From assembly GCF_003334315.1 (NCBI RefSeq), contig NZ_QOWR01000005.1: DNA of 64,000 bases. One strand, given 5' to 3'. The notes under the pieces are model-generated. The model saw only the letters and a list, made by a program, of their open reading frames with translations, had not been told where the DNA came from and did not search any database. Numbering within the stretch: the stretch's first letter is position 1; each line of letters starts with the position of its first letter. Below, piece by piece: positions 37,770-40,262 of the stretch. The DNA is from Escherichia coli. Its GTDB lineage: Bacteria; Pseudomonadota; Gammaproteobacteria; Enterobacterales; Enterobacteriaceae. The translations under genes were made by a program, and so were the position numbers.

Positions 37770-38195
37770 ATGGAGATACGCGTATTTCGCCAGGAAGATT
37801 TCGAAGAGGTCATCACCCTTTGGGAGCGTTGCGACTTGCTGCGTCCGTGGAACGATCCGGAAATGGACATCGAGCGTAAGATGAACCATGACGTCAGTTT
37901 GTTTCTGGTCGCTGAGGTAAACGGTGAAGTGGTCGGAACGGTGATGGGCGGTTATGACGGGCATCGCGGGTCTGCTTATTATCTTGGCGTGCATCCAGAG
38001 TTTCGTGGGCGTGGGATTGCCAATGCGTTGCTTAATCGGCTGGAGAAAAAGCTGATTGCTCGTGGCTGCCCGAAAATTCAGATCAATGTGCCGGAAGATA
38101 ACGACATGGTGCTCGGAATGTATGAACGCCTGGGATATGAACACGCCGACGTGCTGAGTCTGGGTAAGCGTTTGATTGAAGATGAAGAGTACTGA
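37770..38195 (+). CDS. ypeA: GNAT-family acetyltransferase YpeA
   Basis: 141 aa from ATG 37770 ([14 protein letters not shown]...); GNAT motif ([10 protein letters not shown]); ORF track starts 37 codons upstream. Confidence 0.85.
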
Positions 38196-38631
38196 GTTCC
38201 ATCCTGTCCATTATGATGCGCACGGACGCCTGCGTTTACCCTTGCTCTTCTGGCTTGTGCTATTGCTTCAGGCGCGAACCTGGGTGCTGTTTGTCATTGC
38301 CGGTGCGTCGCGTGAGCAGGGTACTGCGCTGCTAAATCTGTTTTATCCCGATCACGATAATTTCTGGCTGGGGCTGATTCCTGGCATTCCGGCGGTGCTG
38401 GCGTTTTTGTTGAGCGGTCGGCGGGCTACGTTTCCTCGCACCTGGCGTGTACTCTATTTTCTGTTGCTGTTGGCGCAGGTGGTTTTACTTTGCTGGCAAC
38501 CGTGGCTGTGGCTGAACGGTGAATCCGTTAGCGGTATCGGTCTGGCGCTGGTAGTGGCGGATATTGTGGCGTTAATCTGGCTGCTGACCAATCGACGTTT
38601 ACGCGCTTGTTTTAATGAAGTAAAAGAATAA
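38182..38631 (+). CDS. yfeZ: Inner membrane protein YfeZ
   Basis: 149 aa from ATG 38182; multiple hydrophobic helices; overlaps ypeA 3' end by 14 nt. Confidence 0.8.
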
Positions 38632-38691
38632 CGGCACTTTTTGGTGAATTTGCACTCCAAGCAACGTTATTGAATAACCAAAGGAAGTGAC

Positions 38692-39267
38692 ATGAAATCG
38701 CTGCGTTTAATGTTATGCGCTATGCCATTGATGCTGACCGGCTGTTCCACGATGTCGTCAGTTAACTGGTCTGCCGCTAACCCGTGGAACTGGTTTGGGT
38801 CGTCCACCAAAGTGAGCGAGCAGGGCGTTGGTGAATTAACGGCGTCCACACCACTGCAAGAACAAGCCATTGCCGATGCGCTTGATGGCGATTATCGCCT
38901 GCGCAGCGGAATGAAAACCGCGAACGGAAACGTGGTGCGCTTTTTTGAAGTGATGAAGGGCGACAACGTGGCGATGGTGATTAACGGCGATCAAGGCACG
39001 ATCAGTCGCATTGACGTGCTGGATAGCGATATTCCTGCTGACACCGGTGTTAAAATCGGTACACCGTTTAGCGACCTTTACAGCAAAGCATTTGGCAATT
39101 GCCAAAAAGCTGATGGTGATGATAATCGTGCCGTCGAATGTAAAGCCGAAGGCAGTCAACATATTAGCTACCAGTTCAGCGGGGAATGGAGTGGTCCTGA
39201 AGGGTTAATGCCTTCGGACGATACCCTGAAAAACTGGAAAGTCAGTAAAATTATCTGGCGGCGTTAA
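38692..39267 (+). CDS. yfeY: Lipoprotein YfeY
   Basis: 191 aa; lipobox LTGC after signal peptide. Confidence 0.85.
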   Translation: MKSLRLMLCAMPLMLTGCSTMSSVNWSAANPWNWFGSSTKVSEQGVGELTASTPLQEQAIADALDGDYRLRSGMKTANGNVVRFFEVMKGDNVAMVINGDQGTISRIDVLDSDIPADTGVKIGTPFSDLYSKAFGNCQKADGDDNRAVECKAEGSQHISYQFSGEWSGPEGLMPSDDTLKNWKVSKIIWRR

Positions 39268-39320
39268 TTTGCGTCTGAACAAACCGCCGCCGCGAAAAAA
39301 CACGTAAAATAGCGCTCAAC

Positions 39321-39351
39321 AATGCCACGGATTGCGTGGCATTATTATTTT
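39321..39351 (+). terminator. Hairpin plus T-rich tract after yfeY
   Basis: gccacg-gattg-cgtggc followed by attattatttt, immediately before the yfeX SD. Confidence 0.55.
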
Positions 39352-39362
39352 CAGGAGGAACA

Positions 39363-40262
39363 ATGTCTCAGGTTCAGAGTGGCATTTTGCCAGAACATTG
39401 CCGCGCGGCGATTTGGATCGAAGCCAACGTGAAAGGGGAAGTTGACGCCCTGCGTGCGGCCAGTAAAACATTTGCCGACAAACTGGCAACTTTTGAAGCG
39501 AAATTCCCGGACGCGCATCTTGGTGCGGTGGTTGCCTTTGGTAACAACACCTGGCGCGCTCTGAGCGGCGGCGTTGGGGCAGAAGAGCTGAAAGATTTTC
39601 CGGGCTACGGTAAAGGCCTTGCGCCGACGACCCAGTTCGATGTGTTGATCCACATTCTTTCTCTGCGTCACGACGTAAACTTCTCTGTCGCCCAGGCGGC
39701 GATGGAAGCCTTTGGTGACTGCATTGAAGTGAAAGAAGAGATCCACGGCTTCCGTTGGGTTGAAGAGCGTGACCTGAGCGGCTTTGTTGACGGTACGGAA
39801 AACCCGGCGGGTGAAGAGACGCGTCGCGAAGTGGCGGTTATCAAAGACGGCGTGGATGCGGGCGGCAGCTATGTGTTTGTCCAGCGTTGGGAACACAACC
39901 TGAAGCAGCTCAACCGGATGAGCGTTCACGATCAGGAGATGATGATCGGGCGCACCAAAGAGGCCAACGAAGAGATCGACGGCGACGAACGTCCGGAAAC
40001 CTCTCACCTCACCCGCGTTGATCTGAAAGAAGATGGCAAAGGGCTGAAGATTGTTCGCCAGAGCCTGCCGTACGGCACTGCCAGTGGCACTCACGGTCTG
40101 TACTTCTGCGCCTACTGCGCGCGTCTGCATAACATTGAGCAGCAACTGCTGAGCATGTTTGGCGATACCGATGGTAAGCGTGATGCGATGTTGCGTTTCA
40201 CCAAACCGGTAACCGGCGGCTATTATTTCGCACCGTCGCTGGACAAGTTGATGGCGCTGTAA
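39363..40262 (+). CDS. yfeX: Dye-decolorizing (DyP-type) peroxidase YfeX
   Basis: 299 aa from ATG 39363 ([12 protein letters not shown]...); AGGAGG SD at 39353-39358. Confidence 0.88.

Follow-up and report, generated by a model that had tools for sequence, protein, structure and literature searches.

The stretch of DNA analysed here, called the window throughout, comprises 64,000 nucleotides (nt), and all coordinates are positions in it. Its part from 35500 to 42500 is Escherichia coli chromosome, with a 100% match to several complete genomes, and the RefSeq annotation of one identical record was transferred to it. Within this part four co-directional genes, ypeA, yfeZ, yfeY and yfeX, follow one another at distances of -14, 60 and 95 nt and stand beside the divergent pair amiA and hemF (Table 1). 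A first-pass annotation had described the four as poorly characterised envelope genes next to hemF, and had proposed a functional link between hemF, which encodes a heme-biosynthesis oxidase, and the heme peroxidase gene yfeX. Its gene identities are right: the family models were re-tested and the RefSeq annotation of the identical genome agrees, as it does on coordinates and strands, and the 14-nt overlap given for ypeA and yfeZ is exact (38182-38195). All four are catalogued E. coli genes that at the gene level are no different from those of K-12 in RefSeq, three of the four proteins (YpeA, YfeY and YfeX) have deposited crystal structures, and as annotation the finding adds nothing. Here we consider how the four genes are controlled, how widely their order is conserved and how their position next to hemF is to be read.

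Table 1. Genes and sequence elements of the ypeA-yfeX region, in window positions; the last row gives positions in the loci of other species
Feature	Position	Strand	Basis
eutR	34726-35778	+	RefSeq annotation
hemF, oxygen-dependent coproporphyrinogen III oxidase, second gene of the amiA-hemF operon	35784-36683	-	Open reading frame and RefSeq; operon per PMC3946193
amiA, N-acetylmuramoyl-L-alanine amidase, divergent from ypeA	36687-37556	-	Open reading frame and RefSeq
Sigma-70 promoter of amiA-hemF, TTGTCA-17-TAAAAC	37637-37665	-	Hexamers from PMC3946193, located in the window sequence
Sigma-70 promoter of ypeA-yfeZ, TTGGCT-17-CATAAT	37707-37735	+	Consensus scan and PMC3946193
ypeA, GNAT-family acetyltransferase	37770-38195	+	NF002959, PDB structures, acetyl-CoA loop
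yfeZ, DUF2919 inner-membrane protein, four predicted transmembrane helices	38182-38631	+	PF11143, AlphaFold2 model
Sigma-E-type promoter of yfeY, GGCACTT-N16-TCCAA	38633-38660	+	10/12 consensus matches, conservation
yfeY, sigma-E-regulated outer-membrane lipoprotein (DUF1131)	38692-39267	+	NF007990, structure 2QZB
Palindromic box TTGCGTCTGAACAA (TTG-N8-CAA)	39269-39282	+	Directly after the yfeY stop codon; composite conserved
-10 hexamer TAAAAT of the predicted yfeX promoter	39305-39310	+	22 nt past the box; near-invariant TAnAAT alignment columns
Hairpin AATGCCACG/CGTGGCATT and U-rich tract	39321-39352 (hairpin 39321-39343)	+	Terminator scan, conservation, covariation
yfeX Shine-Dalgarno sequence AGGAGG	39353-39358	+	Abuts the U-rich tract of the hairpin
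yfeX, cytoplasmic B-type DyP heme peroxidase	39363-40262	+	TIGR01413, structure 5GT2
Two 30-nt palindromic hairpin copies flanking a bacterial interspersed mosaic element (BIME), a pair of repetitive extragenic palindromes (REP)	40285-40496 (spacer 40263-40501)		Repeat search
pbp4b (yfeW)	40502-41806	-	RefSeq; murP and murQ lie beyond
Grimontia/Enterovibrio secreted-protein gene, signal peptide ending ...LAMA/DW	L062 9496-9891, L063 9393-9791, L065 1375-1782		

The four proteins have little in common. YpeA is an ordinary soluble GNAT domain: it matches NCBIfam NF002959 over its full length (259.8 bits, cut-off 124) and PDB chains called acetyltransferase YpeA (E ~1e-94; structures 2PDO, 4QUS and 4QVT), and its translation carries the loop RGRGIA, the acetyl-CoA-binding loop motif of GNAT proteins being (Q/R)-x-x-G-x-(G/A). 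The gene was among the cloned candidates of a lysine-acetyltransferase screen (PMC6199490), and the protein has no known function according to PMC11334477. YfeZ matches Pfam PF11143 (DUF2919) with E = 1.8e-49, residues 6-145 aligning to positions 1-145 of the 146 in the model, and is predicted with confidence to be a four-helix inner-membrane protein; its AlphaFold2 model has a mean predicted local distance difference test score of 85.2 and long hydrophobic helices at residues 21-54, 58-80, 85-111 and 118-136. A fold search with this model gave no PDB match with E <2, and all matches listed in AFDB50 were DUF2919/YfeZ proteins. YfeY scores 337.6 bits against NF007990, 'RpoE-regulated lipoprotein' (cut-off 207), and matches PDB 2QZB with E = 4.7e-110; its signal peptide, read from the translation as MKSLRLMLCAMPLMLTGC/S, has the lipobox LTGC with Ser at +2. 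It has been described as an outer-membrane lipoprotein (PMC8284480), whose fold ECOD places with the BLIP-like, PepSY and SmpA_OmlA domains (PMC11836899).

YfeX matches PDB 5GT2 and the DyP-type peroxidase model TIGR01413 (301.9 bits, cut-off 100.5). Against TIGR01412, the model for deferrochelatases/peroxidases of the EfeB type that are substrates of twin-arginine translocation (Tat), it scores 44.5 bits, where the cut-off is 428. D143, H215 and R232, which from the YfeX structure papers we take to be the catalytic residues, are invariant in the YfeX alignment, as is GFVDGTENP. The protein is a heme peroxidase of the cytoplasm and consumes H2O2. Published work places this DyP peroxidase in the cytoplasm, shows that it can oxidise coproporphyrinogen and protoporphyrinogen in vitro and denies it a dechelatase activity (PMC3215433), and deletion of yfeX in Salmonella Typhi leads to greater H2O2 sensitivity and poorer survival in macrophages (PMC11176087). 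The label of envelope genes applied in the first-pass annotation therefore suits YfeZ, by its predicted inner-membrane location, and YfeY, by its lipobox, but neither the soluble YpeA nor YfeX, which is not of the exported EfeB type. The roles of ypeA, yfeZ and yfeY are still open, as had been said there.

Three promoter-like elements and one hairpin are conserved along these genes. The sigma-E induction of yfeY, the promoters of ypeA and amiA, the anaerobic induction and small-RNA repression of yfeX and the OxyR control of hemF are taken from published papers and not from this analysis. The amiA-ypeA spacer is 213 nt long, and a promoter consensus scan found TTGGCT-17-CATAAT in it; a list obtained by genomic SELEX (systematic evolution of ligands by exponential enrichment) has the same hexamers as a constitutive RpoD promoter 'ypeA-yfeZ', divergent from 'amiA-hemF' (PMC3946193). 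Such a constitutive sigma-70 promoter would read ypeA and yfeZ, pointing away from the promoter of amiA-hemF, and the 14-nt overlap suggests that translation of yfeZ is probably coupled to that of ypeA.

Between yfeZ and yfeY, in the gap of 60 nt, lies a close match to the sigma-E consensus GGAACTT-N16-TCAAA, reportedly the motif of Rhodius et al. 2006. It is nearly identical in almost all Enterobacteriaceae examined and recurs before yfeY in Hafnia, Edwardsiella, Tatumella and Brenneria, four genera that belong to other families. Pseudescherichia and a relative, in which yfeZ itself is deleted, do not have it. This conservation fits the published sigma-E dependence of yfeY, which sigma E induces 3.3-fold while leaving yfeX unchanged (PMC2731931). 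From its own sigma-E promoter yfeY would yield an outer-membrane lipoprotein under envelope stress. A terminator scan found no terminator-like site in the yfeZ-yfeY gap, and transcripts from ypeA therefore probably run on into yfeY.

The spacer between yfeY and yfeX is never shorter than 87 nt and ranges up to 291 nt across the 44 species in which these genes are adjacent. The composite of palindromic box and -10 hexamer was counted over 43 Enterobacterales spacers and is found in 29 of them, under 19 genus-level labels, where shuffled spacers lead one to expect 0.1. The distance from box to hexamer is maintained at 21-22 nt across families, and the offset of the whole composite within the spacer varies from 1 to 204 nt. 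Boxes in other families read TTGCG...CGCAA or TTGTT...AGCAA: the Yersinia version of the composite is TTGCGTTGACGCAA-21-TATGAT, Hafnia and Edwardsiella have the box TTGTTTT(T/G/A)TAGCAA, and the composite also recurs in Rahnella, Serratia oryzae, Morganella, Proteus, Providencia, Pectobacterium and Brenneria. Vibrio salinus has a perfect TTGCGTTGCCGCAA-23-TATGAT 79 nt upstream of yfeX. There is no -35 hexamer at the predicted promoter, and a transcript starting about 7 nt after TAAAAT (near 39317) would put the box centre, 39275.5, at -41.5. Activator sites of the class II CRP/FNR type centre near -41.5, and the consensus for FNR itself is TTGAT-N4-ATCAA. The geometry suggests that yfeX has an activator-dependent promoter of its own within the spacer, that the box would bind the activator, and that it would drive yfeX from 21-22 nt ahead of the -10 hexamer. 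FNR is the obvious candidate for this activator, because yfeX is reported to be highest anaerobically, with induction described in E. coli and Shewanella (PMC3215433) and in Yersinia intermedia (PMC3792023).

Other readings of this stretch were tried. A sigma-54 promoter in TGGCGG...TTGCG at the end of yfeY was rejected on inspection by eye, as the distance from GG to GC exceeds the required one by two bases and the GG falls in conserved coding sequence; a mar/sox/rob box was likewise rejected by eye. Outside Enterobacterales, FNR-like sites upstream of yfeX are not enriched (6 observed, 6.2 expected), and neither are TTGCG-CGCAA-like sites, save for the perfect box of Vibrio salinus. Two further occurrences may be recorded. 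In Bisgaardia hudsonensis (Pasteurellaceae) TTGTTTTATAGCAA, identical to the yfeX box of Edwardsiella ictaluri, stands 173 nt before the aligned yfeX start, with no -10 hexamer at the usual distance. Two Vibrionaceae loci with a three-gene unit (L062 and L063) have palindromes (T/C)TGCG-N6-CGCAA about 150 nt upstream of the DUF2919 gene; these share the Enterobacterales half-sites but have a 6-nt centre, not one of 4 nt, and may reflect chance or a related site.

The same spacer holds the hairpin. In the terminator scan its stem has 9 bp, five of them G-C pairs, and is followed by the tail ATTATTTTCA. In most Enterobacteriaceae ATGCCACG-loop-CGTGGCAT and a T-rich run lie about 19-20 nt before the yfeX ATG. 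Over a 21-species alignment 94.6% of the hairpin cells are paired, and three of the seven pairs change on both sides, for instance with G-C in place of A-U in four species; the covariation score was not reached by any of 500 shuffles, and sliding the 3' partners abolishes the pairing. An Rfam search of 35500-42000 gave no match in this spacer. Transcripts arriving from upstream would meet the hairpin and U-tract 20 nt before yfeX, and most should stop there. Specifically, the hairpin is predicted to end transcripts coming from yfeY, of which the unequal response of yfeY and yfeX to sigma E (PMC2731931) is an indirect hint. The predicted yfeX start lies 3-4 nt ahead of it, and the hairpin may also attenuate or stabilise the yfeX mRNA. 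RybB and MicA are said to repress yfeX in PMC6694218, which cites Gogol et al. 2011 for it; for pairing of these RNAs with the yfeX 5' region we found predicted duplex energies no better than with shuffled targets. The hairpin together with repression by RybB and MicA would explain why sigma E raised yfeY but not yfeX in PMC2731931.

To follow the gene order beyond E. coli, one genome per species was scanned with a YfeX alignment, giving 80 loci from Enterobacterales, Pasteurellaceae, Neisseriaceae, Moraxella, Acinetobacter, Vibrionaceae, Shewanella and others. The E. coli proteins served as queries to detect the neighbours, by tblastn and by iterated profile searches, and the counts below refer to 43 Enterobacterales species whose sequence extends at least 5 kb upstream of yfeX and to 33 species of other orders. 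The taxonomic spread was taken from representatives at 50% identity and from the genome scan; among the 120 best matches listed in the YfeX and YfeZ protein searches, nearly all are Enterobacterales and a few Vibrionaceae. As the first-pass annotation had asked for, the order was thus checked outside E. coli, and it is kept through most Enterobacterales: of the 43 species, 40 have yfeY directly upstream of yfeX, 40 have ypeA and 37 a divergent hemF at a distance of up to 10 kb, amiA was detected between hemF and ypeA in 29 and yfeZ in 27. In the other orders hemF (within 10 kb), amiA, ypeA and yfeY were each found in 0/33 species, and yfeZ in five, all Vibrionaceae. Some species outside Enterobacterales, such as Haemophilus, may lack hemF altogether, whereas Vibrio, Shewanella, Acinetobacter and Moraxella normally possess it. 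A metagenome scan with a DUF2919 alignment returned only close relatives (66-100% identity), again with the gene order of Enterobacteriaceae, with yfeX at 55/56 loci and hemF at 51/54.

The flanks of the block differ from genus to genus. eutR adjoins it only in Escherichia and Citrobacter; the ypeA-yfeX genes have been counted as 'ancillary EUT1', and none of their proteins responds to ethanolamine (PMC11334477). On the other side pbp4b and murP are present only in E. coli itself and Superficieibacter, murP alone follows yfeX in E. albertii, and the genes after yfeX in Serratia, Cedecea and Proteus are cysP and one for a cysT-like permease. In species with a disrupted block (Pectobacterium zantedeschiae, Brenneria, Yersinia thracica) it is yfeY, not hemF, that still accompanies yfeX. 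Serratia, Rahnella, Cedecea, Phytobacter and Superficieibacter have inserted genes that part ypeA from yfeZ, with the downstream genes retained; in Serratia, Yersinia and Rahnella the insert is a gene for an OB-fold stress protein of the YgiW/YdeI family on the opposite strand. No yfeZ was detected in Yersinia nurmii, where about 590 nt remain at its site. The hemF gene of Edwardsiella ictaluri, some 3.3-2.5 kb upstream of yfeX, is detected in two pieces (328 and 78 bits; best segment 51% identity) and may be disrupted, that of the sister species E. hoshinae being a single piece of 570 bits.

The distribution of yfeZ suggests an older association. A DUF2919 gene lies just upstream of yfeX in five of seven Vibrionaceae loci and on one Vibrio-like metagenome contig, the two genes being immediately adjacent in Vibrio plantisponsor, in a Vibrio sp. 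and on that contig. In Grimontia and Enterovibrio only, a secreted protein of 131-132 amino acids is encoded between them, its gene overlapping yfeZ by a few bases; that this could be a diverged YfeY was rejected, the hhalign probability being 0.1. The arrangement agrees with the V. fischeri operon of three genes, yfeX and two hypothetical ones, that Dailey et al. describe. These loci argue that yfeZ-yfeX is older than the adjacency to hemF, and yfeY, along with its sigma-E promoter, seems to have been inserted between the two in Enterobacterales. In Superficieibacter electus (about 7162-9275 of its locus) there are two DUF2919 genes, a diverged one overlapping ypeA (125 bits) and another preceding yfeY (227 bits), with an opposite-strand gene for a 331-residue protein with a lipoprotein-like N-terminus between them.

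We judge it probable that ypeA-yfeX is a mosaic of adjacent, separately controlled units inherited as a block in Enterobacterales, and not one cluster with hemF. There would be at least three units: a constitutive ypeA-yfeZ unit, yfeY under sigma E, and yfeX read from its own promoter. The first-pass annotation had held that independent transcription and an order not conserved would speak against its proposal; transcription and regulation do appear largely independent, and the order is nonetheless conserved across most Enterobacterales. Several points weigh against the mosaic as we describe it. The start of the yfeX transcript, the role of the hairpin as a terminator and the activator are predicted; lying just behind a promoter, a hairpin and U-tract would also act on that promoter's own transcripts, which leaves the role of the hairpin ambiguous. 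The E. coli box agrees with the FNR consensus at seven of ten positions (TTGCG-TCTG-AACAA), that of Yersinia is a perfect TTGCG-N4-CGCAA, unlike the usual FNR site, and the exact composite is missing from 14 of the 43 species. Because Enterobacterales are kin by descent, conservation within Enterobacteriaceae alone is weak evidence. Finally, two sigma-E regulon studies, as PMC2731931 cites them, listed yfeX as sigma-E-dependent and yfeY-yfeX as one unit, so that some read-through from the yfeY promoter is real.

That last point also speaks for the simplest alternative, a single operon in which all four genes are essentially co-transcribed from the ypeA promoter and the internal elements merely tune levels, as do the common direction and short gaps of the genes and the lack of a terminator-like site between yfeZ and yfeY, across which ypeA transcripts very probably reach yfeY. 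We nevertheless think it unlikely, given the conserved, covarying hairpin and U-tract before yfeX, the separate promoter architecture conserved in the same spacer, the failure of sigma E to raise yfeX together with yfeY, the opposite shifts of ypeA and yfeX on entry into stationary phase (PMC2241611), and the insertions between ypeA and yfeZ that several genera carry without loss of the genes downstream. A different alternative takes yfeZ, yfeY and yfeX as a working module, loosely like EfeUOB, with YfeZ as partner of the peroxidase (as an anchor or a route for substrate) and an exported third component, ypeA and hemF being mere neighbours. The Vibrionaceae loci and the contig with a DUF2919 gene directly before yfeX speak for this idea, as do the secreted protein unrelated to YfeY in Grimontia and Enterovibrio and the V. 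fischeri operon. However, the pairing is not obligatory: yfeZ is undetected in 16 of the 43 yfeX-keeping Enterobacterales (e.g., Yersinia, Proteus, Edwardsiella and Pseudescherichia), the yfeX loci of Shewanella, Pasteurellaceae and Neisseria have no DUF2919 gene, and that of Aeromonas caviae has no DyP gene within 5 kb. The family is also broader than the pairing, the AFDB50 matches listed including DUF2919 proteins in Alteromonadales and extra Salmonella paralogues. Since, in addition, yfeZ and yfeX are under different promoters in E. coli, and YfeZ has no conserved His or Cys that would hint at heme binding, the module too is improbable.

The third alternative is the one that the first-pass annotation had in mind, that hemF and yfeX stay close because they cooperate, YfeX acting on the porphyrinogens of HemF or needing heme secured by HemF under peroxide stress. 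It is biochemically conceivable, and in effect already discussed in the literature: both the substrate of HemF, coproporphyrinogen III, and its product, protoporphyrinogen IX, are oxidised by purified YfeX (PMC3215433), hemF is an OxyR regulon member, induced by OxyR and required for catalase synthesis under H2O2 (PMC9576991), and both the peroxide-sensitive S. Typhi mutant and the retention of the arrangement in 37 of 43 species agree with it. The arrangement itself speaks otherwise. The two belong to separate units on opposite strands, and four genes, at least three promoters and the conserved terminator-like hairpin stand between them; the composite of the yfeX promoter occurs only three times in the whole 64-kb window, both strands counted, with no counterpart near hemF, amiA or ypeA. 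Published regulation differs, hemF answering to OxyR and yfeX to anaerobiosis and RybB/MicA, and yfeX is highest anaerobically whereas HemF requires oxygen. No hemF was found within 10 kb of yfeX in the 33 species of other orders, including the Vibrio, Shewanella, Acinetobacter and Moraxella loci; broken blocks keep yfeY rather than hemF; and the conserved block extends on its opposite flank to cysP, which makes the synteny that of a larger ancestral block and not specific to this pair. On account of strand, promoters, regulators and distribution outside Enterobacterales, the adjacency of hemF and yfeX is best read as inherited synteny and not as a functional cluster, and we regard cooperation as the reason for it as very unlikely.

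Beyond the mosaic of separately controlled units, we can offer a more specific proposal, tentatively and with more doubt than belief: yfeX would be under the control of an order-wide regulatory unit, consisting of the TTGCG-N4-CGCAA-like site at -41.5 (to which FNR or another CRP/FNR-type activator could bind), the -10 hexamer and a hairpin near the 5' end, which would both shield yfeX from yfeY transcription driven by sigma E and shape the yfeX mRNA, with YfeZ as the ancestral membrane partner and yfeY inserted later. The box, the hairpin and the old yfeZ-yfeX pairing were not found described in the searchable literature and are modest leads, testable and cheap to follow up. A conserved promoter box specific to yfeX could reveal its regulator, and hence the condition in which the enzyme matters; the hairpin would explain the disagreement of the sigma-E studies over induction of yfeX; and the pairing would be the first functional hint for DUF2919. 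For the debate over YfeX as dechelatase, porphyrinogen oxidase or peroxide defence, the position next to hemF should not serve as evidence.

Downstream of yfeX the region is less stable. The yfeX-pbp4b spacer contains a 30-nt hairpin AGGCCAG(G/C)CAGTAACATTACTGACTGGCCT at 40285-40314 and again at 40467-40496, the copies being 93% identical and 182 nt apart, around a BIME formed by an inverted REP pair (40365-40379 and 40413-40427); the layout suggests duplication of a terminator hairpin on either side of a BIME insertion. These spacer repeats have dozens of copies per genome, and the Rfam search gave only two sub-threshold matches of REP type (naRNA4 and ES036), both in this spacer. The entire spacer is present in only 1402 of 5426 complete E. 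coli genomes, and 35500-42500 is intact as one piece in only 4254 of the same 5426. In E. coli SCPM-O-B-8794 pbp4b is absent and murP follows yfeX after about 150 nt, which together with the latter count argues that the region downstream of yfeX is polymorphic within E. coli. The window from 36687 to 44135 is rich in peptidoglycan genes (amiA, pbp4b, murP and murQ, with murR just beyond); these do not travel with ypeA-yfeX in other genera, and only Superficieibacter shares pbp4b and murP.

Three known systems invite comparison. EfeUOB encodes EfeB, a Tat-exported DyP peroxidase, with a membrane permease and a periplasmic protein, and the present locus resembles it in that the neighbours of a DyP gene encode one membrane and one exported protein. 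However, YfeX is cytoplasmic and scores far under the EfeB-model cut-off, YfeZ is a DUF2919 protein and not an EfeU-type permease, and yfeZ, yfeY and yfeX are not one operon in E. coli. The likeness to the promoters of the sigma-E regulon is that GGCACTT-N16-TCCAA stands directly upstream of a published regulon member and is conserved across families, but the site would drive mainly yfeY, a terminator-like hairpin separates yfeY from yfeX, and repression of yfeX is reported for RybB and MicA, two small RNAs that depend on sigma E. The predicted yfeX promoter differs from an FNR site in the inner positions of its box, which are CG or TT and not AT; TTGCG...CGCAA is presumably closer to the NnrR-type site of alpha-proteobacteria. 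What it shares with class II CRP/FNR promoters is the 14-bp inverted repeat TTG-N8-CAA placed 21-22 nt before a -10 hexamer that has no -35 partner, and a published anaerobic induction of the gene that it would serve.

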